Position numbers and translations under genes: made by a program. Under the pieces are notes generated by a model, which saw only the letters and a list, made by a program, of their open reading frames with translations, was not told the origin of the DNA and ran no database searches. A stretch of 64,000 nucleotides of DNA from Patescibacteria group bacterium. Lineage in GTDB: Bacteria; Patescibacteriota; Minisyncoccia; Phycocordibacterales; Phycocordibacteraceae. The DNA lies in contig JAZKAU010000002.1 in the NCBI GenBank assembly GCA_040388985.1, positions 119,642 to 183,641 on the forward strand. Reading direction: 5' to 3'. Positions 430-53,060 of this stretch are shown piece after piece. Each line of letters opens with the position of its first letter. Positions within the stretch are counted from its first letter, which is position 1.

Positions 430-447
430 ACTGGGGATTATTGTACC

Positions 448-2988: not shown

Positions 2989-2996
2989 AGGAGTTC

Positions 2997-4598: not shown

Positions 4599-5599
4599 GA
4601 GTTCTGCAGGCGTGCCAGTCCGATGAGTAGGTACCCAGGCTCGCCTTCCTGCGGTTCGCCCCCTACCAGGATCACGTTTGCGAGAGAGCTTAGGGCTGCA
4701 GAGAATGATCCTGCCGAACCGGTATAGGTCGATAGTGCGCCCATAGTCGCAAGCGGATCTTTCTCATAGTCGCTGACTATCCTCGTCGCTTTCGCGAGTT
4801 CATCCAAAGAACGTACAAGTTTCACGTGTGAATCTACGAGCGATGGCGGTACCTGCGCGTCCCGCAGATCCTGCGCCATGGCCGCATATGCGTTCGATAC
4901 CTTCACGAGTTTCGAAGCCGCGCTCTTGTCATTTTCTTCGATGACCTTCCCTATGAGTAATAACGGATTTCCTCCGTCATCTTTAATATCGTGCGCTCCC
5001 AGAGTACTTTCTACGGTAGCTGCATATTGCAAAACGGAAGTGGAAGTATTGGTATGCACCGAAACCGAAGCATAGGTCGAGGACAGTGCTTCCCCGGCTT
5101 TGGCGCTGAACTCGCCTAGTAGTTTTGTGACAAGCGCTTGTTGCGCTTCCTCAGTCATTGGCTGCCCATTGCTTGCCGCGACATATTCCTTGAGGAATTC
5201 TTTGGAGAATTCGTCCGTGATGCTGCCTGGAGCAGCTGCAGTAACAGGAATATCGGCGTCCGTGAGAGTAGTCGTTCCCTGCTGGTCTGACGGAAGCTGT
5301 GAGGCGAGGGCATTCGGAGTCAGCAAGCCTCTACGGGCTGCGTCTCCGTCGGATATGCCGTCGCCGTCAGTATCTGCCTTGTTAGGATCGGTTCCATAGA
5401 GGGCCTCCTGCCAGTCAGGAAGACCGTCCCCGTCTGTGTCTTTCGAGGCATACGCCTTCAAAAGTGCATCGGTCGACTCAGCACTCGCGGTCTTGCTTGA
5501 AAGGAAGGAAGGACCTGACAGGACATAGGAGGCCGCAACGAATAAGAGCGCCAATAGAGATGCACCACCAATGCGAAGCGTACGTTCAGAAAGTCTCAT
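4595..5599 (-). CDS. membrane-anchored protein with thrombospondin type-3-like calcium-binding repeats (DTDGDGLPD / DTDGDGISDGD)
   Basis: 345-aa ORF whose M1 is a TTG. The internal ATG (MRLSERTL...) gives an N-terminal hydrophobic anchor; repeated DxDGDG motifs. Confidence 0.5.
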   Translation of the reverse strand: MRLSERTLRIGGASLLALLFVAASYVLSGPSFLSSKTASAESTDALLKAYASKDTDGDGLPDWQEALYGTDPNKADTDGDGISDGDAARRGLLTPNALASQLPSDQQGTTTLTDADIPVTAAAPGSITDEFSKEFLKEYVAASNGQPMTEEAQQALVTKLLGEFSAKAGEALSSTYASVSVHTNTSTSVLQYAATVESTLGAHDIKDDGGNPLLLIGKVIEENDKSAASKLVKVSNAYAAMAQDLRDAQVPPSLVDSHVKLVRSLDELAKATRIVSDYEKDPLATMGALSTYTGSAGSFSAALSSLANVILVGGEPQEGEPGYLLIGLARLQNS

Positions 5600-5665: not shown

Positions 5666-6460
5666 TTACTTTCTGAGCTTTCGAGCCGTATGTGCGAGCC
5701 TCTTCCAGGACGCCAAATCCACATCCTCCGATCGCGCGTCAGGCATCACCCCTGCCTCTTGGAGGAGCGTTTTCGCTGCCTCGCCAGATACGAGCGCTTC
5801 GAGATTCTTCGCTAAGCGCTTGCGCTTATGCGCGAAGCCCGCCTTAAGCACCTCGAAGAAGGCTTCTTCGTCTGCAAGGCTTTCAAAGCAGTCGCCACGA
5901 ATGTCTTGTATGGAGAGTACTGCAGAGTCGACGTTCGGCGCGGGGCGGAAGGCTCCGCGCGGAACTGTAAAGGCGTATGTGGGCGTACCGTACGCCTTTA
6001 CCGAAAGCGAGAGGATGCTCTCTTTCCCGCGCGACCGCGCGACACGCTCGGCAACCTCCTTCTGTACCAGGACCGTCATCGAATACGGTTTGTGAGGAGC
6101 GGTGAGGAACATGCGCATGATCTCCCCGGTTATGTAGTACGGGATATTCGCGACAAGGCCATAGGAGCCTGTAATACGAGCGGGATCGAAGGTACGGATG
6201 TCCGCATGGACAAGCTCAAGCCTTCCCTTTTCGATCTCATCCGCGAATGTTTCGGCAAGCTCGGGGATCAGTTGATCGTCCGCTTCGACCGCGATTACTC
6301 GTGCCGCCTTCGCCAGTAGCGCACGGGTGAGCATACCGGTCCCGGGACCTATCTCGAGCACCGTCGCGTTCTCTGGAAGATTCGCAACCATAACGATGCG
6401 CTCCGCGATCCTCGGGTGCATGAGAAAGTTCTGTCCGAGTGATTTCTTAGGATGTCCCAT
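5666..6460 (-). CDS. rsmA: 16S rRNA (adenine1518/1519-N6)-dimethyltransferase RsmA/KsgA
   Basis: N-terminal KKSLGQNFL motif; SAM-binding LEIGPGTG; 264 aa. Confidence 0.92.
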   Translation of the reverse strand: MGHPKKSLGQNFLMHPRIAERIVMVANLPENATVLEIGPGTGMLTRALLAKAARVIAVEADDQLIPELAETFADEIEKGRLELVHADIRTFDPARITGSYGLVANIPYYITGEIMRMFLTAPHKPYSMTVLVQKEVAERVARSRGKESILSLSVKAYGTPTYAFTVPRGAFRPAPNVDSAVLSIQDIRGDCFESLADEEAFFEVLKAGFAHKRKRLAKNLEALVSGEAAKTLLQEAGVMPDARSEDVDLASWKRLAHTARKLRK

Positions 6461-9239: not shown

Positions 9240-10382
9240 ATGCCTTCGGGCACACGCAGGAACGCATATAAGGCTCTAGCGGTTGCCGGCTCATCGGCGC
9301 TTCTCCTGGGTACGATTTCGCTCCTCTCTCCCTCGACGCTCGGGGCATTTTTTCCGTTCGCTATCACGCACGCAGCTGATGGCGATACTCCGCTCCTCCA
9401 TGACCCGTCTCTCAACCTGCTCGAGGCTGCAATAAATTCTGATCCTAATCCGACCAAGGGCGACACGCTCCTTTCCCTCTCCGAAGGTTCGGCACTCATG
9501 AATACCTCAGGCCCTGACGGAACCATTCCTGCGGGTACGGCAGCCGAGAATCCTTCCGTAGGAGCCATTTCCGTATATACCGTCAAGAACGGCGACTCTA
9601 TCTCGGGCATCGCTGATCACTTCGGCGTTTCCGTGAACACCATCCTCTGGGCGAACGACCTCACTACCAAGAGCACCATCAAGCCTGGCATGTCGCTCGT
9701 GATCCTGCCGGTCTCGGGCACTCGTCATACGGTAGCCGAAGGAGAAACCCTTTCATCGATTGCCACGAAATTTCATGCCTCTACAAGCGAGATCGCAACT
9801 TTCAACGGTCTTGATACCGATGCGACCGTCGTCGTAGGTTCGACCCTGATCATTCCAGGAGGTGAAGCGGCGAATACTACTGCTCCTGCGCCTGCCAAGA
9901 AGAGCAGTGCAGCATCAAAGCCCGCTGCGACATCTGCGAAGAAGACGACAAGCAAGAGCACGACGAAGACTGGCAAGGACATCGGGGCAGCGTCCGCCGG
10001 TAGCGGCTACTACGAGAATCCTGTTCCTGGCGCGATCCTCTACCAGGGAATACACGGCAATAACGGCGTCGACCTTTCCGCACCGAGCGGCACACCGATA
10101 CATGCAGCAGCAGATGGCACCGTCATCATCTCGAAGGCCGACGGCGGATGGAATGGCGGTTATGGCTCCTATGTCGTCGTAAGCCATGCCAACGGCACGC
10201 AGACTCTGTATGCCCACATGAGCAAGGACATCGCGACCGTAGGCGAGACCGTCTCGAAGGGCGAACTTCTGGGCTACGTAGGCGAGACCGGCGAGGCTAC
10301 CGGCAATCACCTCCACTTCGAGGTCCGCGGCGCGAAGAATCCGTTCGGCTACTCGTGCACGCTGATGAAGAAGTGCTACTAG
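9240..10382 (+). CDS. LysM-domain M23 family peptidase (peptidoglycan hydrolase)
   Basis: N-terminal anchor, two LysM repeats (NGDSISGIADHFGVSVNTILWAN; GETLSSIATKFHASTSEIATFNGL), Ala/Ser/Lys-rich linker, M23 motifs (HxxxD...HLHFEVR). Confidence 0.85.
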   Translation: MPSGTRRNAYKALAVAGSSALLLGTISLLSPSTLGAFFPFAITHAADGDTPLLHDPSLNLLEAAINSDPNPTKGDTLLSLSEGSALMNTSGPDGTIPAGTAAENPSVGAISVYTVKNGDSISGIADHFGVSVNTILWANDLTTKSTIKPGMSLVILPVSGTRHTVAEGETLSSIATKFHASTSEIATFNGLDTDATVVVGSTLIIPGGEAANTTAPAPAKKSSAASKPAATSAKKTTSKSTTKTGKDIGAASAGSGYYENPVPGAILYQGIHGNNGVDLSAPSGTPIHAAADGTVIISKADGGWNGGYGSYVVVSHANGTQTLYAHMSKDIATVGETVSKGELLGYVGETGEATGNHLHFEVRGAKNPFGYSCTLMKKCY

Positions 10383-13665: not shown

Positions 13666-13715
13666 CCTCGAAGTGTCTTAGTAGACTGTGGAAATCACAG
13701 AATATACTTTATAAA

Positions 13716-13753
13716 AAATACATCGAGTCCTCTTTAGAGGACTCGATGTATTT
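13716..13753. terminator. perfect 17-bp stem hairpin flanked by A-tract and T-tract (bidirectional intrinsic terminator-like)
   Basis: aaatacatcgagtcctc-ttta-gaggactcgatgtattt; downstream of the minus-strand membrane-protein gene and upstream of the comM start. Confidence 0.6.
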
Positions 13754-13769
13754 TCGTTTGAACCGATAC

Positions 13770-16494: not shown

Positions 16495-16567
16495 TTCCCT
16501 CTATTCTACATGCAGGGCCCCCTTGGCGGGGGCCCTGCATGTGTACTGACTATGATCCGAGGGCCTG

Positions 16568-17080: not shown

Positions 17081-17231
17081 ATGAAATGAGTTATAGGAGC
17101 AGGAAGGGCTGCATGCCAGCAATCCTGCGAACCTTAAAATAATTATGTAAACCGTAACGGTGTGTTACAAGAGTATTCTAACACTTACAAAACGTTCCGA
17201 TACGCCTAATCTGCATGGAGCGAGGTGTTTT

Positions 17232-17282
17232 AAATAAAAAGGGTCAAGCGTAATGCAGCGAAGCGAAATGCACTTTTTATTT
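17232..17282. repeat. palindromic-armed element A (AAATAAAAAG ... core tgcagcgaagcgaaatgca ... CTTTTTATTT) in the rpsO 3' region
   Basis: 10-bp perfect inverted AT-rich arms; the core is 30/31 identical to the element upstream of rny (46134-46206), in opposite orientation relative to the adjacent gene. Confidence 0.6.
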
Positions 17283-17300
17283 AAAATTCCGAGCGGAACT

Positions 17301-17576
17301 TTACTTCTTGAGGCCCAGCTTCTTTATAAGAGAGCTGTACTGACGCTTGTTATTCTTCTCCAGGTAGCGGAGATGCGTGCGACGGTCAGCGACCATCTGC
17401 AGGAGTCCGCGGCGGGAGTGAAAATCCTTCTGATTCTTCTTGAGGTGGCTCGTAAGCTCCTCGATCTTGCGGGAAAGGATACCGACCTGGACTGCGGCTG
17501 AGCCGGTGTCCGTAGCATGCAGCGCCGTGTTCTTAATAACGGCTGTTTTTACGCGTTTTGTAAGCATTGAAGGCAT
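17301..17576 (-). CDS. rpsO: 30S ribosomal protein S15
   Basis: 91 aa; HSRRGLL...LIKKLGL S15 signature. Confidence 0.92.
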   Translation of the reverse strand: MPSMLTKRVKTAVIKNTALHATDTGSAAVQVGILSRKIEELTSHLKKNQKDFHSRRGLLQMVADRRTHLRYLEKNNKRQYSSLIKKLGLKK

Positions 17577-21903: not shown

Positions 21904-22308
21904 AGGACACTTATCCCCACAAATGTCCTTTACTCTGTCCTATACAAGCGTAGTATCAGTAAAGGAAGGGGAGCGGCAAGGCTTGTGAAGGGTTTGCCGG
22001 TTCCCGAAACCGGCTGATCTTTGTTGTTCTTTGTTCTCTATCAGGCGCATGTAGTGTGGTATCTCTAACTCTCTACTTACATCTTCGGGATGATTCCCTG
22101 ATACTTAAGCGAGCTAGACAGTGATGTAGGTTCCACGTGAAAGCGCAGTTTACACAAGCCGCCAGGACCATATCTCCCGGAGGCCACCAATTCTTGCCCC
22201 CGCTCAATATTTGGTCTCCTGTGCTCGGTCTCAAGCAGCTTACGACAAAGAGGTCGCAGTGAGTGATTTCAACAGATTGGAATCCCTCCCTGCGGCCTCT
22301 TTTCTTTT
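21904..22308 (+). ncRNA. candidate structured non-coding RNA region, unidentified (~400 nt gap between convergent genes ending in an intrinsic terminator)
   Basis: No credible ORF; ends with hairpin gaggtcgcag...ctgcggcctc followed by TTTTCTTTTC. A non-coding gap of this size is unusual in this compact window. Confidence 0.25.
22250..22308 (+). terminator. rho-independent terminator-like hairpin with U-tract
   Basis: 10-bp stem (one G-U), 30-nt loop, then tttcttttc. Confidence 0.45.
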
Positions 22309-22376
22309 CACATGAAACAGGAGCAAAAGTGCCGTAATCGCTAGCGATTACGGCACTTTTGCTCCTGTTTCATGTG
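22309..22376. repeat. perfect 68-bp palindrome (33-bp arms around a central ctag)
   Basis: cacatgaaacaggagcaaaagtgccgtaatcg|ctag|cgattacggcacttttgctcctgtttcatgtg equals its own reverse complement; 20 nt downstream of the cca stop. Confidence 0.8.
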
Positions 22377-22396
22377 GAACTATCTATGGGAAGCCT

Positions 22397-23918: not shown

Positions 23919-23990
23919 GCTCCTGTGGTGAAATGGATATCACAACAGTCTTCGGAACTGTCGTTCCAGGTTCGAATCCTGGCGGGAGCA
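23919..23990 (+). tRNA. tRNA-Arg (anticodon TCG), no encoded CCA
   Basis: Manual fold: acceptor GCTCCTG/CGGGAGC, D-arm GTGA..TCAC, anticodon loop CTTCGGA, T-arm CCAGG-TTCGAAT-CCTGG, discriminator A. Confidence 0.8.
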
Positions 23991-24010
23991 CAGAAGGAGG
24001 TGAGTCAGGT

Positions 24011-25396
24011 TTATCGCTTAACGACCAATCGCTGCAGAATCAGGCCTGCGACGATCACTCCGATCGATGTGTATGCGCTCAAGTGAAATGGTGCCGGAAT
24101 CGTGAAGAGAGCTAGCTCCGCCACTATCCAGCAGGCGGCTATCACTATCACCGGCATACGCCAGAGACCCAGAGAGAATGTATCTGGAGAGGGAAGCTTT
24201 TTCATGTTCAGTGCAAAGCTCAGAATAGTTATGAGGTATACCAGCGAGAGTAATATTATAGTCGTCGCATACAGCGCCGTCTGTCCGTAGGCGAATACGA
24301 TAAGTAATATCTCGATTGTGGCTACGAATATGGCTGCATTTGCCGGTACGCCTCGTCCCGAGACTTTCTTCAGGATGTGCGAGCCGCGCGTGGCCTCGTC
24401 TCGTGCCATGGCGAACGTCAGACGCGCTGCATTAGTAATGACGAGAAGGCCTACCGCCAGCATCGCTATGAGGACGCAGACTAGGAATATATACGTCGGT
24501 ATCATGCCCAAGTGATAGAAGAATATGCTCGAGACAGGATCAACTTCACTGGCGATAGTGGCTGCGTTTGGAATCGCAAGCGTAAGGATCAGCAAGAAGA
24601 TAAAGCCAAGGATGGCTGAAGAAGAGACGGCAGCTATAACACTCTGCGGCGCAGTCCGGCGGGCATTAAAGGTTTCTTCCGATACGTCAGAAGGAGCTTC
24701 ATAGCCGAATATCGTCCACGCCGCGAGAAGTCCCGAGATAAAGAACGCTGGCAAGTACGGAACGGGGTCGTGAGGAATGGTAGTGAGAAGGGCAAAATGC
24801 AAGCCACCATGTAGTACGGATGCGATCACGAGCGCCGTGCCGAATACGACGAGGGCTATCATCTCGATGATGACCGCATACCGGTTCAAGAGACCAGCGA
24901 AGGCTATGCCGTATATGTTTATGAATAGCTGGACGAGAACGATACTGATACCAATGACCTGCACCGTACCCGGACTGAACGTGTGGCCGAGCAGGGAGCC
25001 CAGAGGCGCCATCATGGCCGCTATGAGGCCGACGCCGGCGACCGCATAGCCGAAGATCGTAAGCCACCCTGCCTGCCACCCGACGGAATGCCCGCTCATG
25101 CGGGTATTCCAGTTATAGAGAGAGCCGGTAAGAGGAAGACGCCCTGCTATCTCAGCGAATACCAGCGCGACGAACATTTGACCGACAGCAACGATTGGCC
25201 ACGTCCAGATGCTGAAGGGTCCGGCCGATGCAAGAGCGAAGCCGTAGTTCGAATACACTCCCATTAGGACTGACATGAATGAAAAGGCAGCGGCGAAAGA
25301 AGCGAATCGGGTAAGCTTGCGACGCAGTTGGGGCTGGTATCCGGAATCAAGGATGAGCTGGTCATCTGCAGAGACTCTCTCGAATTGTGTTTCCAT
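24011..25396 (-). CDS. APC-family amino acid/polyamine permease
   Basis: 461 aa, 12 predicted TM helices, amino-acid permease-like N-terminus. Confidence 0.75.
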   Translation of the reverse strand: METQFERVSADDQLILDSGYQPQLRRKLTRFASFAAAFSFMSVLMGVYSNYGFALASAGPFSIWTWPIVAVGQMFVALVFAEIAGRLPLTGSLYNWNTRMSGHSVGWQAGWLTIFGYAVAGVGLIAAMMAPLGSLLGHTFSPGTVQVIGISIVLVQLFINIYGIAFAGLLNRYAVIIEMIALVVFGTALVIASVLHGGLHFALLTTIPHDPVPYLPAFFISGLLAAWTIFGYEAPSDVSEETFNARRTAPQSVIAAVSSSAILGFIFLLILTLAIPNAATIASEVDPVSSIFFYHLGMIPTYIFLVCVLIAMLAVGLLVITNAARLTFAMARDEATRGSHILKKVSGRGVPANAAIFVATIEILLIVFAYGQTALYATTIILLSLVYLITILSFALNMKKLPSPDTFSLGLWRMPVIVIAACWIVAELALFTIPAPFHLSAYTSIGVIVAGLILQRLVVKR

Positions 25397-25544
25397 GCCC
25401 GTACCCTACGTTCAGGGCGTTATATTAGAAGGACATGTCTGCATTCAGTATATTTTCACCACAATAACGAATAAAAACAGTTAATTTGACTATAATTTTG
25501 TCAGAATAGTTGACATAAAATGGGTGGTCCCGGAGAATGATGGG

Positions 25545-26282
25545 ATGGATATGGCGATTTTCAAAGCCCTCGGTATAGACGAAAAGGCTGCCGCTATCTA
25601 CCTTGCCACTCTTCTCCTTGGAACCACATCCGTACAACACATCGCCAGAAAATCGGGCCTCAAACGCCCGACCGTCTACTTGCACTTAGATGACCTTATT
25701 AAGCAAGGCTTGATCGAACATGTCCCGCTCCATAAGAAGAACTATTACCGGGCCACTGACCCCGTGGTAATCGAAGAGCGTTTAAAGAAGAATCTGTCTA
25801 CATTCCAGGCGCAAATGCCGAGGATGCAGTCCTTGCGAGCCGACACGATGGGGAAGCCGCAGGTACGGCTCCTCGAAGGGCAGGAGGGCATAAAGCAGGT
25901 CTACGAGGAGATACGGAAGACTAACAGCTTCAGAGTCTGGTCGAATGTCGGTCAGGAATATGGTCCGTTCCACAATACCTATATGGAGCTCGCCGAAACC
26001 ATCAAGGAGCAAGGGATAGGAGTGCGGGAGATAAGCGCGAATACCAAGGAATCTCGGCGCTATATACGCCTTATCGCCAAAGTCGCCGGCCCATCCTACA
26101 GCGTCCGCATGGCCACCGTTGATGGCATAGAGAACGATACGATCATATATGGGGATGTCATCGCATTGTTCCGCCTACCTGGCTTGAATCAATTTGTGGT
26201 GCGTATTGAGGACAAGACCATGGCCGATACTATGCGCGCCATGTTCGACATGGCCTGGAAGACGGCGCGACCTTTCAAATAG
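25545..26282 (+). CDS. TrmB-family winged-helix transcriptional regulator, paralog 1
   Basis: N-terminal HTH (IFKALGIDEKAAAIYLATLLLG...IARKSGLKRPTVYLHLDDLIKQGLI); C-terminal F..MAW motif shared by all seven paralogs. ORF M1 at 25524 is GTG, so the start is placed at an internal ATG. Confidence 0.7.
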   Translation: MDMAIFKALGIDEKAAAIYLATLLLGTTSVQHIARKSGLKRPTVYLHLDDLIKQGLIEHVPLHKKNYYRATDPVVIEERLKKNLSTFQAQMPRMQSLRADTMGKPQVRLLEGQEGIKQVYEEIRKTNSFRVWSNVGQEYGPFHNTYMELAETIKEQGIGVREISANTKESRRYIRLIAKVAGPSYSVRMATVDGIENDTIIYGDVIALFRLPGLNQFVVRIEDKTMADTMRAMFDMAWKTARPFK

Positions 26283-26331
26283 AACTCGAGGAATTGATGA
26301 AACGCCCAGGTTGTGAGAATATATACCCGTT

Positions 26332-26402
26332 GCGGGTATAGTTTAGTGGTAGAACGTGACGTTGCCAATGTCAAAGCGGGGTTTCGATTACCCCTACCCG
26401 CA
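26332..26402 (+). tRNA. tRNA-Gly (anticodon GCC), no encoded CCA
   Basis: Acceptor GCGGGTA/TACCCGC, anticodon loop TTGCCAA, T-arm GGGGT-TTCGATT-ACCCC, discriminator A. Confidence 0.85.
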
Positions 26403-26431
26403 CTCGAGTTTAGACAGGAAGCATAATGCGA

Positions 26432-26875
26432 TTAAGTAGAGTCCGATTCTCGGCGTTTCAAACTTACGCCTATTCCTGCATTTTCAGAGACATACTTAAT
26501 AGCCTTAGAAAGTAGCTCAGGCTTATCTTTAAACTGCCCTAGTCCTATATTGCAGTTGGAACAAAGTAAGCCTCGAACGACCATGGTTTTATGGCAATGA
26601 TCCAGAACAGGCCTCTTCATAGGGTTTTGACATATACCGCAAAGCCCTCGCTGCCTCTCAAACAAGTCTGCATATAGCTGTCTATGTGGCCCGGCAGTTC
26701 CAAATTTTTGGTTTAGCTTTTTATCCTCAAGACATTGTATGCAACACACTCGGCCCTCTGCCGAAGGATTTTTCGTGCAACTTGGACAAATACCCTTCTC
26801 CTTAAAAGCAGCCTTCCGGCGTCGCTGGTACGCTAAAAAATGTTGTCTTTGTTCCTCGGATTTCCAAGCGCTCAT
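26432..26875 (-). CDS. recombination endonuclease VII family protein (phage T4 endo VII-like)
   Basis: LDHCHKTMVVRGLLCSNCNIGLG motif matching Endonuclease_7 (DHxH...RGLLC..CN); multiple CxxC; 147 aa; adjacent to tRNA-Gly. Confidence 0.65.
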   Translation of the reverse strand: MSAWKSEEQRQHFLAYQRRRKAAFKEKGICPSCTKNPSAEGRVCCIQCLEDKKLNQKFGTAGPHRQLYADLFERQRGLCGICQNPMKRPVLDHCHKTMVVRGLLCSNCNIGLGQFKDKPELLSKAIKYVSENAGIGVSLKRRESDST

Positions 26876-27032
26876 ATTGCTTATATATCCACAATATACT
26901 TCTGTGGAAATAAGAAAAGGGGAAAAGTCTGTTAGTACTGGGGATAAAGGACAAATATTTTAAAAGATATTTATAGGGGCTTTAGGGATATTTTATAAAA
27001 TATTCAGTAAATACAAGCTATTCTTAAAGGCC

Positions 27033-27428
27033 GTGGAACTCAGCAATTCTTCACGTAAGGACATCGGGAACCTCGGAGAGCAGATCGCGGCCGAATATCT
27101 GCGTCGCCGCGGATTCACCGTCGTCGACCGCAATATCGTCCGAAAGACCGGCGAGCTTGATGTGGTAGCGCGCAAGGGAGACGTACTCCACGTTGTCGAG
27201 GTGAAAACCGTGCTCTGCGACAGCTTTCCGAACGACGCAACGAGCGACGACCAGTACGATCCGTCCGTGAATTTACACGCGCACAAGATTCAGAAAGTCG
27301 CGCGGACCGCCGAGTGGTATGTCGCGAGCAAAGACTGGAAAGGGGAGTGGCAGGTGGACGGTATCCTGGTCTGGCTACGCGCGCACGATGGCTTAGCCAG
27401 GGTCCGCTATTTCCCCCAAATCCTCTAG
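27033..27428 (+). CDS. YraN/UPF0102 family endonuclease-like protein
   Basis: GNLGEQIAAEYLRRRGFTVVDRN...GELDVVARKGDVLHVVEVKT matches YraN; GTG start. Confidence 0.7.
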   Translation: MELSNSSRKDIGNLGEQIAAEYLRRRGFTVVDRNIVRKTGELDVVARKGDVLHVVEVKTVLCDSFPNDATSDDQYDPSVNLHAHKIQKVARTAEWYVASKDWKGEWQVDGILVWLRAHDGLARVRYFPQIL

Positions 27429-27629
27429 GACACCTCCCAAAATACCCATCTACTTTGTTGCTCGCTCCGTTGCTCCCTCACCGTATAGCCCAATACGCCT
27501 CGGTACGCTCCTCACTCGCGCCTCGTAGCTGAGCATTTTTGAAAGTGTCCTGATTAGACCTTATATAAAAACCTGATAGAATAGGCAAAACAGGGGGTTC
27601 GAGACCATCTCGGTTCCCATTCTGTCATT

Positions 27630-27700
27630 CGGGGTGTCGTATACCGGTAGTACGACTGCTTTGGGAGCAGTTAGACGGGGTTCAATTCCCCGCACCCCGA
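27630..27700 (+). tRNA. tRNA-Pro (anticodon TGG), no encoded CCA
   Basis: Acceptor CGGGGTG/CACCCCG with C1:G72 and discriminator A, the bacterial tRNA-Pro hallmark; anticodon loop TTTGGGA with G37; T-arm CGGGG-TTCAATT-CCCCG. Confidence 0.75.
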
Positions 27701-27911
27701 CAAATTAGCGAGCGCAGCGAGACAATTTGTCGGGGCGAGCAGGCAAACTGCTTTGCCTGAGTCGGGGAATTGAAAGGCGGAACATGTCTGAGGCTCTGCG
27801 AGGACAGTGAGCCGGGGTGGCGGATACTTAGCGAGTCTTCGAGCTTAGTAAACCGTGACCAATCCCCGCACAATTTAATAAGCAGCAGCCAGTTCTCCAA
27901 AATACTAAGTA

Positions 27912-29003
27912 CTAGTCCGCAACAATCTCCCCACCCTTCACCTTCGGGAAATACACATTCGGTACTCGCAGTCCTGCGTTGTCGAAGTATACGTCTCCAT
28001 CTGCACCGACGAATCTTGCGTCTTTCATATTCTGGATCCACTGCATAGAATCCTTGCTGTACGTCTTAGCTAGAAGCTCAAAGGAGTCGTACCCGACTTC
28101 TGAGCCGAACGGGGGCTGCTCGCCATATTTAGCCACATACTGCTTAGTAAATTCAGCCGTAGGTGCGTTATTGGAAGCCGATACGATACTTCCTTGGATT
28201 CCCGCCAGATCGCTACCCAGTACTGCTTGATATTCTGGTAGTCCCGACTGGATACTCTGATCGAAGACGAAGTACGGGCGAGTGGCAGCAGTTGTAATCG
28301 TGAGGATCTCTTTCACGAGCAGTGCCCCGTCTCTCGGAGCCATGAATAGGCAGACGACATCAGGCTTTGACGCGACTATCGCTAAAGCTTGAGAACGGAT
28401 ATCACTTACATCGCTACCAATATTGAATTTCGGCACGTTCCCGCCATACCCGTCGTTGAAGCCATTATAGAAGTTCTGATACACGGAGGTGGAGTTGCTT
28501 ACGGCCGCTACCGGTTTCTTGTATCCGAGTCGCCTTACTTCAATGCCAAGCGCGTGCTGGACAGGGTTAGCTGCAGGGACTACCTGGAAGATATTGTCAT
28601 CTTCGGCGGGCTCCGTTTGCTCAAAGCCGAGTGCAACCGGCTTCTTCTCCGTATGAACGGCGTCATATATGACGTCTATAGTGAATGTCGTAAGCACCGC
28701 GTATGCGTCAGGAGCATTGAATTCTTGAAGCTTTTTGTATGCGGAGAGTCCGGTCGTCGAATCGAAGTGATCGTCCTCAGTCGTTGCTTCGAACTTGAGA
28801 TCATGAGAACCGTTCCACTGCTCTAGTGCGAGATTAAAGCCCTTCACATATCCCTCCCCAACCGCAGCATACTGACCGGTCATGCCGGCAATGACTCCTA
28901 GATGAACCACGGATGCTTCCTTCTTGTGGCCGATAGAACTTACGGCATAGGCAAGTATGCCAAGAATAACGATTGCGACAGCAACGACCAGAAGTTTCTT
29001 CAT
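27912..29003 (-). CDS. ABC transporter substrate-binding protein, LivK/branched-chain amino acid-binding type (orphan, no permease adjacent)
   Basis: N-terminal signal anchor, periplasmic-binding type I fold motifs (GVIAGMTGQYAAVGEGYVKG); 363 aa. Confidence 0.7.
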   Translation of the reverse strand: MKKLLVVAVAIVILGILAYAVSSIGHKKEASVVHLGVIAGMTGQYAAVGEGYVKGFNLALEQWNGSHDLKFEATTEDDHFDSTTGLSAYKKLQEFNAPDAYAVLTTFTIDVIYDAVHTEKKPVALGFEQTEPAEDDNIFQVVPAANPVQHALGIEVRRLGYKKPVAAVSNSTSVYQNFYNGFNDGYGGNVPKFNIGSDVSDIRSQALAIVASKPDVVCLFMAPRDGALLVKEILTITTAATRPYFVFDQSIQSGLPEYQAVLGSDLAGIQGSIVSASNNAPTAEFTKQYVAKYGEQPPFGSEVGYDSFELLAKTYSKDSMQWIQNMKDARFVGADGDVYFDNAGLRVPNVYFPKVKGGEIVAD

Positions 29004-29213
29004 AAATATAAGGGTTAGGGAAGTAAAGGCGCACGGAGATTCTTTACTTATGTGGGCAATCCTGGCGTAGTTATATTATAACGTCAAGTATTTTGTCTAA
29101 AATATGAGCATCAAATATCGCAAAAACCTTCATTCTATAAGGTTGTATGAAAAACTTGCTACTTATCATCAAAATTATTGACTATTTTATAACAATGCAT
29201 ACACTTCAAATAT

Positions 29214-29960
29214 ATGGACGTCTCCGAGTCGCTAACGGCCCTGGGCTTGAATGAGAAGCAATCGACTATCTACGTAGCATTACTGCAACTCGGGCGAGGA
29301 AGCGCGTATTCGATCGCCGATAAGGCGGGGATAAAGCGACCGACCGCCTACGTCATTCTAGGAGAACTTATTGAGAAGGGGCTCGTGTCTCGGGTGCCAC
29401 GGGTGCGCAAACAGCTATACGTTGCCGTATCACCGGAACAAGCCTTCGCATCTGCCGAGGAGAGACTGGCCGCGGCCAAGCAAAAACTGCCGGAGCTGCT
29501 AGCGATGACCAAGGGCGCAGATTCGAAAGTGAACGTGCTTTTTTTCGAAGGCGTGAAGGGTATAAAGCAGGTTATGGAATATAAGCGGGAGGAAGATAAA
29601 GGTAAAGAGTTCGTGGGCTTCTACGCTATGACGAAGAACGTGCCCAAAGACCTGCTTGAATATTTTGAAGAATGGAATGAGAAAGTCCGCAAGAGAGGTA
29701 CAACCATGCGCGGTATCGTACCGGATCACTCAACCCTTGCCTTCCATCGCTCGCAGGACAAGCACTTGGGAAGGGACATGAAGATAGTGCCGTATAAGCA
29801 ATTCTCGTCGGAGGTCGCCATAGATATCTCCGAACGCATAGTGCGTATCCACGACTATAAGAATCTCCAAGGCGTTGCCATAGAGAACGCGGACGTAGCG
29901 AAGACGATGCGAGAGATATTCGAGATGTTGTGGAGTCGCATCCCTGAGCGGGAAACATAG
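29214..29960 (+). CDS. TrmB-family winged-helix transcriptional regulator, paralog 2
   Basis: LTALGLNEKQSTIYVALLQLGRGSAYSIADKAGIKRPTAYVILGELIEKGLV HTH; C-terminal REIFEMLW motif; ATG start. Confidence 0.7.
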   Translation: MDVSESLTALGLNEKQSTIYVALLQLGRGSAYSIADKAGIKRPTAYVILGELIEKGLVSRVPRVRKQLYVAVSPEQAFASAEERLAAAKQKLPELLAMTKGADSKVNVLFFEGVKGIKQVMEYKREEDKGKEFVGFYAMTKNVPKDLLEYFEEWNEKVRKRGTTMRGIVPDHSTLAFHRSQDKHLGRDMKIVPYKQFSSEVAIDISERIVRIHDYKNLQGVAIENADVAKTMREIFEMLWSRIPERET

Positions 29961-29997
29961 CCAGACCGAGTCCGAATATGGTATCCTCGCTCTTACA

Positions 29998-30068
29998 GCG
30001 GGATTAGTTTAATGGTAGAACATCAGTTTTCCAAACTGAGAGCAGGAGTCCGATTCTCCTATCCCGCA
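29998..30068 (+). tRNA. tRNA-Trp (anticodon CCA), no encoded CCA
   Basis: Acceptor GCGGGAT/ATCCCGC, anticodon stem CAGTT/AACTG with loop TTCCAAA, T-arm AGGAG-TCCGATT-CTCCT, discriminator A. Confidence 0.8.
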
Positions 30069-31023: not shown

Positions 31024-31791
31024 ATGTCAAAGAAGACTGATGAAGTCGATTCAGAGGAATTGCTTAAAAAATTAGAAGAGATAGGTCTTTCTAAGAAGGA
31101 AGCCCAGGTATATCTGGCCCTTTTGCCACGTCGGGACACGGGAACTTCTAACATCATCCGTGCCACAGGACTCCATGGGCAGTTCGTCTACGATGCTCTG
31201 GAACGTCTTGAGACACTCGGCCTGGCGAAACATGTCATCCAGAAAGGCAGAAAGAAATTTAGTGCGAACACACCCGGCAGACTCATCGCTCTTGTTGATG
31301 AGAAGCGACTAGCCGCACACTCGATTGCGCGAGAACTTCAAAGTCGCTTCCAGGGGGCGCACGAGCAAGATTTCGAAGTGTATCAAGGGCGCGACGCGTT
31401 CGTTGCGCATGAATTTGAGCTTATGCAAGAAATGCCCGAAGGCTGCACAATCGATATTCTTGGTGGGGGTGGTAGTAAATATATGGGGATACTCGCGGAA
31501 GAAATGAATGAGCTGGAGATTCTTCGCAACAAGCGCGGCATCAAGATTCGCTACATAAGCACGGTGAGCCAGGGGGAGTCACTCCGAAAAATGGCAGGGA
31601 ACAGGAAGAACTTTGAGTATCGAATCTTTCCGAACCTTGAAGGCGGCATTATAGACACCGATATCTGGCCCGACAGGCTGATCTTGCAGTTCTATGGCGA
31701 ACCCATCCTCTCATTCTCTATTACGAGTAAGGAGATAGCAACCAGCTATCGCGAATTCTTTAACGCGCTTTGGACTTTGTCGAAACCTTAA
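31024..31791 (+). CDS. TrmB-family winged-helix transcriptional regulator, paralog 3
   Basis: LLKKLEEIGLSKKEAQVYLALLP HTH; C-terminal REFFNALW motif. Confidence 0.7.
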   Translation: MSKKTDEVDSEELLKKLEEIGLSKKEAQVYLALLPRRDTGTSNIIRATGLHGQFVYDALERLETLGLAKHVIQKGRKKFSANTPGRLIALVDEKRLAAHSIARELQSRFQGAHEQDFEVYQGRDAFVAHEFELMQEMPEGCTIDILGGGGSKYMGILAEEMNELEILRNKRGIKIRYISTVSQGESLRKMAGNRKNFEYRIFPNLEGGIIDTDIWPDRLILQFYGEPILSFSITSKEIATSYREFFNALWTLSKP

Positions 31792-34861: not shown

Positions 34862-35581
34862 TCACTTCAAACTCCGCCACTCCTTATCAAATATATCTTC
34901 GTGATATTCGGCGATCATGTCGTTCGCTATAAGCACACCGAACAGATTTTCGAATGAGATAAGTGCCACGTGACCGTTAAAGACGATCATATTGATTGCC
35001 GGCGTGTATCCCTTCTCTAGGAATCGATATCGGTAATTCTCGCTTCCCTTATATTTTCTACGTTTTACTCCCAACTCTGTCCTTTCGATAAGCACCTTCG
35101 CATCAATACCTTTTTCTTTCACTCTTTCGACGAATCTGTCTTCCTTTGCAGCAAAGACTTCCAGATACTTATCTGGAGAGAAGATACTTTTTATATATCC
35201 CGCCTTCTGCACAATTTCCGTGTATAAGTCTTGCAGCCCGTCCTTATCCTGATATAGCGTAATGCTCGGCGTCTGCTTCACCGATGAAAAGACGACGGTT
35301 AGCGCTTCCAAGTTCTTCTCAAATTCAAATGCTGCGCTGTGATACTTCGTTACGAGCGATTTCGGATTTTCTGCCAAATAATACAGTCGTTTCCCGAGTA
35401 CGGTCTTCTTTATATAGTTCTTCTCCAAGAGATTCTCTAGATACGCATACAGCGTCGTCCTGTTTATCCTTGTCGCACTCGATATGCCTGCCAGATTTAG
35501 TCGGCCTCCTCGCAAGATAGCCAGGTATACGCGAGACTCATTCTTTGTCAGGCCCAACTTCTCCAATCCCTGGGTTTCCAT
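34862..35581 (-). CDS. TrmB-family winged-helix transcriptional regulator, paralog 5
   Basis: LEKLGLTKNESRVYLAILRGG...RINRTTLYAYLENLLEKNYI; C-terminal EDIFDKEW. Confidence 0.7.
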   Translation of the reverse strand: METQGLEKLGLTKNESRVYLAILRGGRLNLAGISSATRINRTTLYAYLENLLEKNYIKKTVLGKRLYYLAENPKSLVTKYHSAAFEFEKNLEALTVVFSSVKQTPSITLYQDKDGLQDLYTEIVQKAGYIKSIFSPDKYLEVFAAKEDRFVERVKEKGIDAKVLIERTELGVKRRKYKGSENYRYRFLEKGYTPAINMIVFNGHVALISFENLFGVLIANDMIAEYHEDIFDKEWRSLK

Positions 35582-40998: not shown

Positions 40999-41175
40999 CC
41001 TGCGTTATTAAGATTCATTAAATAGCTCCTACCCTCGACCGATCATTCCAGTGAAGCGGTCGCTAGAGTCCATGATGATTCTCCTGTCAGGCGCGAAAAT
41101 CTTTCGCGCCTGAATAAGAGGGGCGACCGTGGTCGCCCCAGGTTGGCTAACGGGTGCACCATGCACCCGTTAGCC

Positions 41176-44055: not shown

Positions 44056-44165
44056 GATAGGTACTCCTCTACACTGAGCGCAGTAAACGCTAGTCAATAC
44101 TAAGTGTCAAGAAATGAAGAAAAGGCCGCCCGTGAGGGCGGCCTTTTCTTCATTCGGAACCGATA

Positions 44166-44548: not shown

Positions 44549-44580
44549 GTGAAAAATAGCCCTAAAGGGCTATTTTTCAC
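44549..44580. terminator. 14-bp perfect stem hairpin downstream of rny
   Basis: gtgaaaaatagccc-taaa-gggctatttttcac. Confidence 0.55.
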
Positions 44581-44607: not shown

Positions 44608-46116
44608 CTAACGAGCGAATTCGACGACACGGTTCTCGCGAATGACATTTACTTTGATCTCTCCTGGATAGCGGAGCTCTTCCTGCACGCGAAGCGCGAT
44701 CTTTCGCGCGAGCGTGTGGGTTTCGAGGTCTGAAATCTTTCCGGGATTCACGAAGATGCGTATCTCGCGCCCGGCCTGTATGGCATAGGCTTTCTCGACG
44801 CCTTCGAAGCTGCTAGCAAGACGCTCAAGGTCGCCAAGACGCTCAAGGTAGCGCTCTACGGTGTCGCGACGCGCTCCCGGCCTGCCGCCCGAGACGGAGT
44901 CGGCTACCTGTACGATGACGGATTCGGGAGTCTCATACGGGAATTCCTCGTGATGGGACTGCATAGCCTGGATTATGCGCACATCGACGCCGAACTTCTC
45001 GAGGATGCGACGGCCTATTTCCACGTGCGTACCCTGCACTTCATGATCGACCGCCTTGCCGATGTCGTGCAGAAGGGCGCCTGCGCGCGCGATGTCAGGA
45101 TCAGCGCCGAGCTCTTCGGCAAGCATTCCGGCGATGTGCGCCATCTCGACCGAATGGGTGAGAACGTTCTGCCCGTAGCTTGTGCGGAAGTGGAGGCGGC
45201 CCAGGAGCGCGGTGAGCTTAGGGTCGATGCCTACGACGCCGACTTCATATGCGGCCTGCTCGCCTTTCTGTTTCATGAGGCTCTCGACTTCGCTGCGGGT
45301 CTTCTGTACGGTCTCTTCTATCTTGGCGGGCTGGATGCGGCCGTCTTCGATAAGCTTCTCGAGCGCAATCTTAGCTATATGGCGACGTAATGGGTCGAAG
45401 GAGGAAAGGGTTATTGATCCAGGGGCTTCGTCGATGATGACATCGACACCCGTAGCACGTTCGAAGGCCTTAATATTGCGGCCCTCCTTGCCGATGATCT
45501 TTCCCTTTATCTCCTCAGACGGTATAGGGACGGCAAGCGACATGACTTCCGCGTTCACGGGGTTCGCAAGACGCTGGATGACCGAGAGGAGAATGCTACG
45601 AGCCTTCTCCTCAAGCCGTTTGCGACCGGTCGCCTCAAGCTTCTGGATACGCCCGAGGAGCGCGCCTTCCTGGGCCTTCTCGATGTCGGATATGAGTCGT
45701 GCCTGCGCTTCTTCTTCGGAGAACTGGGCGATGCGCGCGAGTTCGGCCTTGCGCTCTTTGAGCACTTCCTCAGCGTCCTTGCGGAGACTCGTTGAGATCT
45801 GCTCGCGCTCGACGAGGCTGCGCTCGCGCTCGTCGAGGAACTCTTCACGCTTCATGAGCCGAGCGTTGAAGCGCTCGAGCCGCTCTTCGCGTTCCTGGAG
45901 AGGAGCGGCGCGCGTGACTTCTACTTCTTCAGCGCGCTCTTCAGCTTCCTCAAGAATGCGTCCGGCGCGTTCCTTGGCTTCAAGGAGCTTCTGCTTCACT
46001 TCAAGCTCCAATGAGCCGCGCTGGCTCAGACCGATGAGCAAGCGCAGGACATAGCCGACCATGACGCCGGCGAGCCCGGACAGGGCGAGCAGGGAAAGCA
46101 CTAATTTTATAGACAT
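44608..46116 (-). CDS. rny: ribonuclease Y (N-terminal TM, coiled coil, KH and HD domains)
   Basis: TM anchor MSIKLVLSLLALSGL, charged coiled-coil, KH (IIGKEGRNIK), HD (LLHDIGKAVDHE). The start is set at the internal ATG because the longer ORF N-terminus overlaps repeat element B. Confidence 0.9.
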   Translation of the reverse strand: MSIKLVLSLLALSGLAGVMVGYVLRLLIGLSQRGSLELEVKQKLLEAKERAGRILEEAEERAEEVEVTRAAPLQEREERLERFNARLMKREEFLDERERSLVEREQISTSLRKDAEEVLKERKAELARIAQFSEEEAQARLISDIEKAQEGALLGRIQKLEATGRKRLEEKARSILLSVIQRLANPVNAEVMSLAVPIPSEEIKGKIIGKEGRNIKAFERATGVDVIIDEAPGSITLSSFDPLRRHIAKIALEKLIEDGRIQPAKIEETVQKTRSEVESLMKQKGEQAAYEVGVVGIDPKLTALLGRLHFRTSYGQNVLTHSVEMAHIAGMLAEELGADPDIARAGALLHDIGKAVDHEVQGTHVEIGRRILEKFGVDVRIIQAMQSHHEEFPYETPESVIVQVADSVSGGRPGARRDTVERYLERLGDLERLASSFEGVEKAYAIQAGREIRIFVNPGKISDLETHTLARKIALRVQEELRYPGEIKVNVIRENRVVEFAR

Positions 46117-46133: not shown

Positions 46134-46206
46134 GTCCCTGGGCAAATAAAAAGTGCGTTTCGCTTCGCTGCACTCGGCATTCAAGCCTTTTTATTTGCCC
46201 AGGGAC
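46134..46206. repeat. palindromic-armed element B (20-bp perfect inverted arms gtccctgggcaaataaaaag / ctttttatttgcccagggac around a 33-nt core) 18 nt upstream of the rny start
   Basis: The core contains tgcagcgaagcgaaacgcac, 30/31 identical to element A at 17232-17282; the inner segment gctgcactcggcattc resembles element C. Confidence 0.65.
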
Positions 46207-46262
46207 CTCGCTAAAGTTGCGGGATTGCTAGGGCACCGTACCATATTTGGAGTTTCCGGTAC

Positions 46263-46296
46263 AGAAATGGCGACTCCGAGCGGAGTCGCCATTTCT
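46263..46296. terminator. 16-bp perfect stem hairpin downstream of clpP
   Basis: agaaatggcgactccg-ag-cggagtcgccatttct. Confidence 0.5.
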
Positions 46297-46928: not shown

Positions 46929-47041
46929 ATAAGGGATATTAGTGAGGCAATGATATCAAAATCTACTTGAGAAGACGAGTGAAGAGATGAGATTGAACGC
47001 GGCTTGACGATGGTGGCACACTTTTGATACACTTTTATCAC

Positions 47042-47263
47042 ATGGCAACAACCAAGAAACGTATCAATATAAGCGTGTCCAAAGAGATGGACGACGTACT
47101 CGGAAGACTTGCGAAGCGCGATCAAGTTCCTCAGGCGACCAAGGCGGAACATCTCATCCAGCTTGCTCTTGAGATAGAGGAAGATGAAGCTTTGGACGTC
47201 ATCGCGCGTAAGCGTGATGTGAAGAGCGCACGCTTCATCCCCCATACTCGCGCATGGCAGTAA
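47042..47263 (+). CDS. ribbon-helix-helix type II antitoxin (RelB/ParD/CopG-like)
   Basis: Small basic N-terminus (KKRINISVSKEMDDVLGRLAKRD); overlaps the downstream RelE-like gene by 10 nt. Confidence 0.65.
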   Translation: MATTKKRINISVSKEMDDVLGRLAKRDQVPQATKAEHLIQLALEIEEDEALDVIARKRDVKSARFIPHTRAWQ

Positions 47264-47544
47264 TATACGAGGTCGTATATGAGAGCCAGGTAGTATCGGT
47301 CGATATCCCGAAGCTCCCTCGCGCATTGAAAGAAAGAATCCGAAGCGCGATTGAAGAGAAACTTACTACCCACCCTGACGTGTATGGTAAGCCGCTGCGG
47401 CGCTCGCTCAAGGGATATCGTAAACTGCGAGTCGGCGACTACCGCGTGGTATTCCGCATCGACTCCTCCAAGATAAAAGTCTTTGCCATACTCCACCGAT
47501 CAGTGGTCTACGCCATTATGGAGAGACAGGGCGGAAGTTCCTAA
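47254..47544 (+). CDS. relE: RelE/ParE family type II toxin
   Basis: 96 aa; YRVVFRID...KIKVFAILHR motif. Confidence 0.8.
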   Translation: MAVIYEVVYESQVVSVDIPKLPRALKERIRSAIEEKLTTHPDVYGKPLRRSLKGYRKLRVGDYRVVFRIDSSKIKVFAILHRSVVYAIMERQGGSS

Positions 47545-47717: not shown

Positions 47718-47771
47718 ATCTACTCTTTACTATACTAGTCGTGTAGATTTCATGAAACTTACAGGATAATT

Positions 47772-47809
47772 GAAATCCCCCTGAAGGCTGTGGCCTTCAG
47801 GGGGATTTC
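47772..47809. terminator. 17-bp perfect stem hairpin downstream of ppa
   Basis: gaaatccccctgaaggc-tgtg-gccttcagggggatttc. Confidence 0.6.
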
Positions 47810-47843
47810 ATAAGTTCTTCAGTTTTCTTTTAGAACCGGAAGA

Positions 47844-49853: not shown

Positions 49854-49981
49854 ATTCGTGTATTTAATTGTGTATTCCCGTATGTAATTTTCGCCCGATA
49901 AAAAGAAAGGCCCGCGGGTGCGGACATCTCAGACCTCTACAACATACCATATATAGGCTCACTCGGTCAACGAGCCGTTCG

Positions 49982-50056
49982 GAGCCGGAGATAAAAGCGC
50001 CGTTCCGCATAGGAATGCTGCACTTGGCAATCCTGAACCGCTTTTATCTCCGGCTC
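49982..50056. repeat. palindromic-armed element C (18-bp perfect inverted arms gagccggagataaaagcg / cgcttttatctccggctc around a 39-nt core) ~130 nt upstream of nusA
   Basis: The core gctgcacttggcaatc resembles gctgcactcggcattc of element B (13 of 16 positions identical); ATAAAAG/CTTTTAT arm signature as in A and B. Confidence 0.6.
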
Positions 50057-50169
50057 CTCTCTGCGTTACCTCGTTCGCTTTCAGGGGCAGAGCTTGATAT
50101 TTGTTGGTAGTATGGTAAAAATCATTCGGTTGCCAATCCGGCACTGAATAATCTACAGGAGACGTTGTT

Positions 50170-52325: not shown

Positions 52326-53060
52326 TCATTTGCTCGCCTTCCAGAGAAAGTCAAAGTAATTCTGGTAGTTCTTTGCAAGTTCAGCGTTGATGATTTCAAC
52401 GACGGTGTACGGCTCAGTGAAGGTTTGGATACAGATACGATCTTGTAATATTTCTACATTATTGGTGTCGCTGCCAATGAGCGGGTTGAAGCGCAGTTCG
52501 GTTAGACCATTGCCTTCTGCAAGCAATGACCGTATCTGCGGGAAAGAGGTCTTAGCGATGCCTCGCAAACGTAACCTCTTTTCTCTTTGTATCCGGGTTA
52601 CTTCCTTTTCTGTCGCAAGACCTACGACGGCATGCCAATGAGGCGAGGTACCAAGATACCGATGAAGCGCACCAGGTTCAGCAAGCTCATAGGAGCGTAC
52701 GACGTGACGACGGAATTCATCGATACCTTCATATACGATCACTTCCTGGCGATTCTTCTTCGTAAGGTGCGAGAGTTCTTCTATCGCATGCTTGGCTATG
52801 CGCTCCTTTTCTTCGACATCAGCCAGAAGACGGGTAGGGGAGAGGAGTTTGAACATTAATATGCCTCGCTCGCGCGCGCTGGTAATAAGTTTCTTTTCGA
52901 CAAGTTCTTCAAGCGCGGTATAGACGATGTTGCGGTGCATCCCTGTCTGCTTTATGAGCTCCCCAGCCTTCGCGCTCCCTGCCTTTGCAAGTGCGAGATA
53001 GAGCACGGTCTGATTCTCCGTGAGGCCAAGCTTCTGCAGATTGTCGAAAATGGCTGTCAT
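52326..53060 (-). CDS. TrmB-family winged-helix transcriptional regulator, paralog 7
   Basis: LQKLGLTENQTVLYLALAKAGSAKAGELIKQTGMHRNIVYTALEELVEKKLI; C-terminal QNYFDFLW. Confidence 0.7.
   Translation of the reverse strand: MTAIFDNLQKLGLTENQTVLYLALAKAGSAKAGELIKQTGMHRNIVYTALEELVEKKLITSARERGILMFKLLSPTRLLADVEEKERIAKHAIEELSHLTKKNRQEVIVYEGIDEFRRHVVRSYELAEPGALHRYLGTSPHWHAVVGLATEKEVTRIQREKRLRLRGIAKTSFPQIRSLLAEGNGLTELRFNPLIGSDTNNVEILQDRICIQTFTEPYTVVEIINAELAKNYQNYFDFLWKASK

Follow-up and report, generated by a model that had tools for sequence, protein, structure and literature searches.

A hairpin upstream of rny probably belongs to a low-copy family of dispersed repeats in Paceibacteria

Results

A palindromic element lies in the 5' leader of rny

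Upstream of the RNase Y gene (rny) in the 64-kb stretch of DNA analysed here (the window) there is a palindromic element, referred to below as copy 1, that ends 17 nt before the rny start codon (the ATG at 46116..46114; Table 1), and not 18 nt before it as given in an initial annotation of this DNA. A longer ORF, starting with MQRSETHFLF, is read-through of the repeat, and inspection of the ORFs bore out the earlier view that this N-terminus and that of a second ORF (MQRSEMHFLF) are both translated repeat. On the far side of the element we find a promoter-like block (CCAAATATGGTACGGTGCGCTAG) that is kept upstream of rny in all relatives. With this conserved block upstream and the ATG downstream, copy 1 is placed inside the rny 5' UTR, and since orientation A of copy 1 reads on the plus strand, orientation B is the one present in the rny mRNA. 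The predicted fold of copy 1 has an energy of -45.9 kcal/mol (z = -7.4). Farther along, between ppa and clpP (47024-47544), lies an antitoxin/ParE-toxin pair; three of four relatives (L031–L033) have a Cu-oxidase_4 (PF02578) gene at this place.

Table 1 Positions of the three copies of the element and of features around them in the window.
Feature	Position	Strand	Basis or remark
Gene-end palindromes	13715-13754, 16508-16542, 41145-41175, 44113-44154, 44549-44580, 46263-46296, 47771-47810		
Promoter-like block CGTTTTGTAAGTGTTAGAATACTC of the downstream NYN-domain gene	17171..17194	-	conserved in L036-L043
Copy 2, 15 nt 3' of the rpsO stop codon	17228..17286	- (orientation A)	inverted repeats; covariance-model score 51 bits
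rpsO (ribosomal protein S15)	17301..17576	-	
rny (RNase Y, 502 aa)	44608..46116	-	start MSIKLV, as in all homologues
Copy 1, rny 5' leader	46134..46206	+ (orientation A)	inverted-repeat detection; pattern counts; covariance-model scores 66 and 48 bits
Promoter-like block CCAAATATGGTACGGTGCCCTAG (extended -10, TGgTACGGT)	46228..46250	-	conserved in L031, L032, L033, L035; promoter role inferred
Native clpP terminator, perfect 16-bp palindrome	46263..46296	-	inverted-repeat detection
nusA promoter TTGACC-18-TATGTT (with TG)	49941..49970	-	conserved in relatives
Copy 3, upstream of nusA	49981..50057	+	inverted repeats; pattern count; covariance-model score 88 bits
Promoter-like site TTGATA-17-AAAAAT, with TATGGTA motif, for the small membrane-protein gene at 50170	50094..50122	+	function inferred

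The sequence of copy 1 confirmed the perfect 20-bp inverted repeat around a 33-nt core that had been described previously: its arms, GTCCCTGGGCAAATAAAAAG (46134-46153) and CTTTTTATTTGCCCAGGGAC (46187-46206), are 20 nt long, 100% complementary and spaced by 33 nt. Of this, the conserved unit is 46144-46196, which consists of AAATAAAAAG, the 33-nt core and CTTTTTATTT, and the outer arms (GTCCCTGGGC/GCCCAGGGAC) are particular to copy 1. Copy 2, downstream of rpsO, has a core of 31 nt and perfect arms of 14 bp (17228-17241 and 17273-17286), where 10 bp had been assigned. The rny and rpsO copies are alike at 28 of 29 consecutive bases (AAATAAAAAGTGC[G/A]TTTCGCTTCGCTGCA) and in the right arm CTTTTTATTT, and the other 11–13 nt of the core match only in part. 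Their opposite orientation relative to their own genes, both of which are on the minus strand, stood as described. A third copy, overlooked before, lies upstream of nusA and is oriented like the rny copy, with which it has ATAAAAG/CTTTTAT and GCTGCACTYGGCA in common. Its arms (GGAGCCGGAGATAAAAGCG) pair perfectly over 19 bp, and its core, 39 nt long, is of the type seen in other MAGs (see below).

These matches are far in excess of chance: the pattern AAATAAAAAG-N20-45-CTTTTTATTT occurs twice in the window (0.00 expected), and ATAAAA-N25-55-TTTTAT three times in the 64 kb (0.10 expected). All of the 53 stem pairs in the three window copies are Watson-Crick, with no G-U, and the copies are solitary, 4–29 kb apart. 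The rny and nusA copies are also found in an independent Logan assembly of SRR26324622 and therefore are not an assembly artefact. The Logan contig SRR26324622_12901 (L001, position 1) breaks off inside the nusA-upstream copy, which suggests that the repeat or palindrome breaks assemblies, as repeats do.

Seven copies in four genomes share a unit set centrally in locus-specific palindromes

We scanned one genome per GTDB species with a structured pattern fitting the three window copies, for which the chance expectation was estimated at <0.1. The scan returned four further copies (L002, L003, L004 and L005), all in Parcubacteria/Paceibacterota MAGs and two of them (L003 and L004) in the same MAG, JBDSUM01, giving a family of seven copies in four genomes (three in the window and four in three other Paceibacteria MAGs, JBDSUM01, JAQBRJ01 and CAXUAR01). 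L003 and L004 do not differ in the 44-nt core or in the inner arms (~60 nt in all), and their outer arms are unrelated yet perfectly or almost perfectly paired. This indicates that the copied entity is a unit of 51–62 bp and that the outer palindrome belongs to the locus. Indeed, each of the seven units is exactly central in a longer palindrome whose outer 4–17 bp are unique to the locus; these outer arms are perfectly Watson-Crick in the window, with one mismatch or G-T pair each in L002 and L003.

The unit common to the seven copies has A/T-rich inverted ends of 8–10 bp (ATAAAA...TTTTAT) around an asymmetric core of 31–44 nt. On alignment, the seven copies agree without exception in the inner arms (A)(A)ATAAAA / TTTTAT(T)(T) and in the core stretch TTYCGC...GCTGCAYT. 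The core folds as an irregular hairpin composed of P3, a 2-bp helix, a 3x3 GCA/GRA loop and a small P2 hairpin, with an unpaired tail of ~10 nt on one side. P2 changes from GCAU/AUGC to GCCG/CGGC, a compensatory change, or is reduced to GC-UUC-GC; the 2-bp helix shows one change of G-C to A-U, and the neighbouring 3x3 loop never varies. In the alignment of seven copies 94% of cells are paired and nine pairs have changed on both sides, values matched by none of 500 shuffles. The asymmetry of G-U against A-C, used to find the functional strand, offered only three imperfect pairs, which conflict with one another.

Searches beyond the pattern scan were negative. Two covariance models built in this analysis (R1 and R2) match only the known copies, plus one weak match in a small coding ORF. 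No Rfam 15 family was matched at gathering or permissive thresholds, the whole window giving only four tRNAs; around the copies there were only chance microRNA-type matches (E>1), and a sub-threshold match to STnc250 (E=0.013, 23.6 vs 42 bits) falls on the clpP terminator adjoining the rny copy. A single core scan of JGI metagenome contigs (CGTTCCGC-N3-12-GCTGCACTTGGC) returned 25 loci, all of them GC-rich chance matches. Three of these (L012 at ~9400-9650, L024 at ~6000-6250 and L029 at ~1500-1750) are copies of an unrelated intergenic repeat of JAESGO01, ~200 nt long, GC-rich and of alphaproteobacterial type in a genome of 66–70% GC, which holds GCGTTCCGC-N3-GCTGCACTTGGCC between short palindromic arms and surfaced only because it matches the search pattern by chance. 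The viral contigs scanned contained no match, a phage BLAST gave only A/T-arm matches, and an additional 3 kb of the source genome held no new copy.

Several other identities for the core were considered and rejected. Resemblance to a tRNA, to domain 5 of group II introns or to box C/D RNA gave no significant match. A small ORF in the core is not conserved, as the arms differ between copies, and a promoter inside the core (TTGAAA/TTGAAT as -35) was dismissed on reading the sequence, there being no -10 at a workable spacing. The motif AAGTGCG resembles the Haemophilus USS; an uptake sequence was discounted since the copies are far too few and the other subtype lacks the motif.

The copies lie mostly just after stop codons and are absent from relatives

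Five of the seven copies sit 0–20 nt 3' of a stop codon, and both orientations occur. In the other MAGs the stop codons so followed are those of gyrA, a class-I lysyl-tRNA synthetase gene and a recG-like gene, and one copy occupies the gap between two convergent genes. The rny and nusA copies, two of the three in the window, are outside terminator position.

Copy 2 is the sole hairpin between the rpsO stop codon and the next promoter, and the rpsO mRNA carries orientation A. In relatives (RpsO 90–92% identical), rpsO is followed by an ordinary GC-rich bidirectional terminator (AAGAACAATCCGGC-loop-GCCGGATTGTTCTT) and, beyond it, by the conserved NYN-domain gene promoter; the window is without this terminator, and the element stands in its slot. 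Between the rpsO stop codon and the element (17287-17300) are 14 nt, AGTTCCGCTCGGAA, that form a mini-palindrome and have no counterpart in the relatives. The rpsO 3' UTR and the rny leader had been expected to be complementary over ~20 nt. They are indeed complementary, with a perfect run of 15 nt, a longer near-perfect duplex and a gain on cofolding of -22.8 kcal/mol over the monomers; however, this follows automatically from two inverted copies of any repeat, and we regard it as a by-product.

Copy 3 ends 10 nt upstream of the nusA -35 and has a divergent promoter-like site on its far side. Its position between divergent promoters means that it is probably not transcribed. At 49895-49970 (minus strand) the nusA promoter is followed by a leader hairpin (GTCCGCACCCGCGGGC) and a T-tract, ~50–90 nt before the nusA ATG, an arrangement that is kept in four of four relatives and that looks like a conserved leader attenuator.

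To compare the three sites across lineages we fetched the syntenic loci of relatives (RNase Y 84–87% identical, RpsO 90–92% identical). At rny (all four leaders: L031, L032, L033 and L035), nusA and rpsO alike, the orthologous sites lack the element, and the models R1 and R2 found no true copy in ~200 kb of the relatives' DNA. The rny 5' UTRs of L031 (~9940-9975), L032 and L033 contain a different hairpin, with a covarying 6-bp stem (CCGGTC/GACCGG, CCGACC/GGTCGG) and a 19-nt loop, and rny of L035 is almost leaderless. A precise empty site, sought via relatives of RNase Y, RpsO, MraZ and ClpP, was not recovered, the closest relatives being too diverged or rearranged.

Signs of mobility were sought in the flanks and in nearby genes. 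Neither target-site duplications nor flank homology rose above shuffled flanks, the best case (rny) being equalled in 109 of 2000 shuffles. TCGCT 'wings' on both sides of the rny and rpsO copies were suggestive by eye and were discarded as not above shuffled controls. Among the ORFs scanned in the 64-kb window and in 8-kb pieces of the other MAGs, there was no transposase or recombinase beyond a conserved XerC-like gene of the window.

The outer arms resemble native terminators

The native terminators of the window and of other Paceibacteria loci are perfect palindromes of about 12–23 bp with loops of 0–6 nt and resemble the outer arms of the element, and none of the native hairpins of the window uses ATAAAA/TTTTAT. 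At nearly every gene end there is a perfectly paired palindrome of 14–19 bp with a loop of 2–5 nt and no G-U, a style shared by L002–L005, which suggests that some process keeps terminator palindromes perfect. An unusually long one for a terminator, 74 bp at 22306-22379, lies 18 nt after the stop codon of the CCA-adding enzyme gene and has 37-nt arms (97% complementary, one mismatched pair) with no spacer; it scores 29.6 bits with R1 from hairpin shape alone.

At the RNA level the two orientations of the element differ. In orientation B the irregular core hairpin (-5 to -15 kcal/mol) abuts a (G/C)UUUUUAUUU U-tract, and in orientation A ~10 nt separate the core hairpin from the U-tract. A simple scan for consensus terminators calls none of the copies. 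An element in orientation B would look like an intrinsic terminator, and the full stem of 14–24 bp could serve, in either orientation, as a strong 3'-end-protecting hairpin or as an RNase III-type substrate.

Other features of the window

Four tRNA genes are spread over 6 kb at 23919-30068, interspersed with genes for an amino-acid permease, two TrmB-type regulators and a periplasmic binding protein; a recombination endonuclease VII gene (26432-26875) lies within the same stretch. The CCA-adding enzyme and UPF0102 genes that flank it adjoin closely in relatives, so the stretch may be an insertion. There are at least six TrmB-family helix-turn-helix genes in the 64 kb (25524-26282, 29214-29960, 31024-31791, 34862-35581, 52326-53060 and others). 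At the left edge of the window (1-4600), and in L047 (11611-17655), large secreted or membrane proteins are encoded beside PrgI-like and TraC-like genes in a cluster that resembles a type IV secretion or conjugation system.

Discussion

Genomes of the Candidate Phyla Radiation (CPR) are small and usually thought to be repeat-poor. The reading that we favour, with a probability of about 0.6, is that the hairpin upstream of rny is a member of a low-copy, dispersed and sporadically gained repeat family, of the REP, Correia or MITE-like kind, that is present in a few Paceibacteria and occupies hairpin or terminator positions. The initial annotation had already suggested a small mobile or REP-like element or a family of bidirectional terminators, and the seven dispersed copies in four genomes, their sporadic gain and the preference for positions after stop codons fit that suggestion. 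On our reading the unit would have spread by transposition, or by a copy-and-paste or recombination process. The outer palindrome could have arisen by either of two routes, the unit landing at the dyad or apex of a pre-existing hairpin, or a locus-specific palindrome being gained by template switching after insertion. Units would then be retained at the borders of genes, places that tolerate a hairpin or profit from one: the rpsO copy would fill a terminator slot, and the copy in the rny leader would be an insertion specific to the lineage, with attenuation or processing of the transcript as possible effects. Against a mobile repeat stand the lack of a target-site duplication, of a transposase and of a precise empty site in the DNA searched, and the small number of copies known (seven). 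A bolder version, which we put forward only as a doubtful possibility, holds that a ~55-bp non-coding cassette homes into the dyad centres of hairpins, or builds a perfect palindrome by template switching, and thereafter is a portable CPR terminator. The driver would presumably be an enzyme that recognises single-strand hairpins, and this mode of targeting or propagation would be one not described for MITE or REP elements.

The compensatory changes in P2, together with the strong conservation of the core, could equally reflect a selected RNA function instead of a mobile repeat. The element might be a non-mobile RNA module, a terminator or stability hairpin with an irregular core to which a protein binds (for instance a termination factor or ribonuclease) and which has been recruited repeatedly as it works in both orientations. 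Such a module would account for the P2 changes, the change of G-C to A-U in the 2-bp helix and the invariant 3x3 loop, for the five copies located right after stop codons, for the replacement of the native rpsO terminator and for the U-tract that the orientation-B hairpin abuts. We nevertheless consider it unlikely, if credible: both divergent promoters point away from the nusA copy, which probably goes untranscribed, the identical units of L003 and L004 point to recent copying and not to independent recruitment, the exclusively Watson-Crick pairing of the window stems (53 of 53) fits symmetry at the DNA level, and there is no match to an Rfam family. The pairing of the arms, together with the copy in an apparently untranscribed spacer and the A-tract inner arms, could also be taken to indicate a site that acts as DNA and has no RNA role, namely a hairpin or cruciform recognised by a recombinase, by a nucleoid protein (HU/IHF-like) or by the replication machinery. 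We regard such a site as quite improbable, as no associated recombinase was seen, the large loop of 31–44 nt disfavours cruciform extrusion and the core does not resemble a dif site, although the IHF site in the Correia core offers an analogy (PMC2649163).

Two further alternatives concern rny itself. It is clearly unlikely that the hairpin is dedicated to controlling rny in cis, with RNase Y levels set in the 5' UTR through attenuation or through processing by RNase III or RNase Y, since the element is missing in four of four relatives examined (one of which, L035, is almost leaderless) and the unit is also found at unrelated loci. The location of copy 1, 17 nt short of the ATG and downstream of a conserved promoter-like block, the terminator-like orientation B of the rny mRNA and the presence of a hairpin, albeit a different and covarying one, in the leaders of L031–L033 would nonetheless be in keeping with such a role. 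The idea raised at the outset, that the rpsO 3' UTR pairs in trans with the rny 5' leader as an antisense and so couples the expression of S15 and RNase Y, draws on the 15-nt perfect run, the longer near-perfect duplex and the predicted gain of -22.8 kcal/mol. We judge it highly improbable and have not retained it: beyond being the automatic outcome of inverted repeat copies, the complementarity involves copies of which neither is conserved in relatives, much of the sequence concerned is locked in intramolecular stem arms of 14–20 bp, and the nusA copy, oriented like the rny copy, is apparently outside any mRNA.

A dispersed hairpin cassette that replaces native terminators and enters leaders, such as that of RNase Y, would be a source of regulatory variation between close lineages. 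It would also be a cause of assembly breaks in MAGs and possibly a handle on how mobile DNA recognises hairpins. For annotation, the repeat explains two spurious ORF starts and warns against taking complementarity between UTRs that carry repeat copies as regulation.

Among known systems, the element has two features of MITEs, terminal inverted repeats that are conserved among copies (the inner arms) and dispersed copies that differ in presence between related genomes (three in the window, two in JBDSUM01 and none in the relatives); flanking direct target-site duplications, a further MITE feature, were not found. As for terminators, five of the seven copies lie just 3' of a stop codon where a transcription unit ends, and the rny and nusA copies do not. 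The element is like a bidirectional intrinsic terminator in that an A-tract, a hairpin and a U-tract form one long palindrome after stop codons, which at rpsO replaces the terminator of the relatives. It differs in that a conserved, irregular and asymmetric core of 31–44 nt takes the place of the GC-rich stem-loop, and this abuts the U-tract in one orientation only. TIGR stem-loop arrays (TIGR-Tas), from phages and parasitic bacteria, have variable but palindromic stems and short conserved loop motifs (PMC12045711). TIGR units, however, are tandem, stand beside a tas gene with a Nop domain and have variable spacers in their loops; a TIGR array was rejected given that our copies are solitary and dispersed and that the loops of L003 and L004 are identical. 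No Nop/Tas gene appeared in the Pfam results for the scanned ORFs and the genes called in the fetched loci.

A precedent for mobile DNA that inserts inside palindromic extragenic hairpins is provided by IS1397, ISKpn1 and the ISPpu9/IS110 family (PMC1525189, PMC12288879). Targeting of hairpins or REP loops by a related process would explain why a conserved insert lies centrally in locus-specific palindromes, although those insertion sequences are full elements with a transposase, whereas the unit described here is 51–62 bp, non-coding and has no known autonomous partner. REP, BIME and REPIN sequences are extragenic palindromes found mostly at the 3' ends of genes in either orientation, where they stabilise or attenuate transcripts and form single-strand hairpins (PMC3333891, PMC2817692, PMC3116915). 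The family resembles these sequences, which are associated with RAYT (Y1) transposases, in being palindromic, in lying at gene 3' ends and in occurring in both orientations. Yet in a REP it is the stem, with a 5' GTAG-type tetranucleotide, that is conserved, and a REPIN is made of two inverted REPs with a variable loop; our family has the opposite pattern, a conserved core or loop with a variable outer stem, as well as a far lower copy number and no RAYT in the DNA examined.

The Correia elements of Neisseria (CREE/NEMIS) are intergenic, ~100–150 bp long, and have inverted-repeat ends and a conserved core; transcribed together with the genes beside them, they yield a hairpin that RNase III may cleave or that may block this enzyme, and they can affect the expression of adjacent genes and vary in presence between strains (PMC2649163, PMC10969869). 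The likeness lies in the combination of inverted ends and a conserved core in a short intergenic element. Correia elements, however, have conserved terminal repeats of 26 bp, a TA target duplication, an IHF site and hundreds of copies, whereas in our family arm conservation extends over only 8–10 bp, the outer arms vary with the locus, copies are few and a search for target duplications was negative. The element thus lacks defining features of both the Correia and the REP/BIME/REPIN families, and its unusual feature with respect to known small palindromic intergenic repeats is a conserved core held within locus-specific palindromes.
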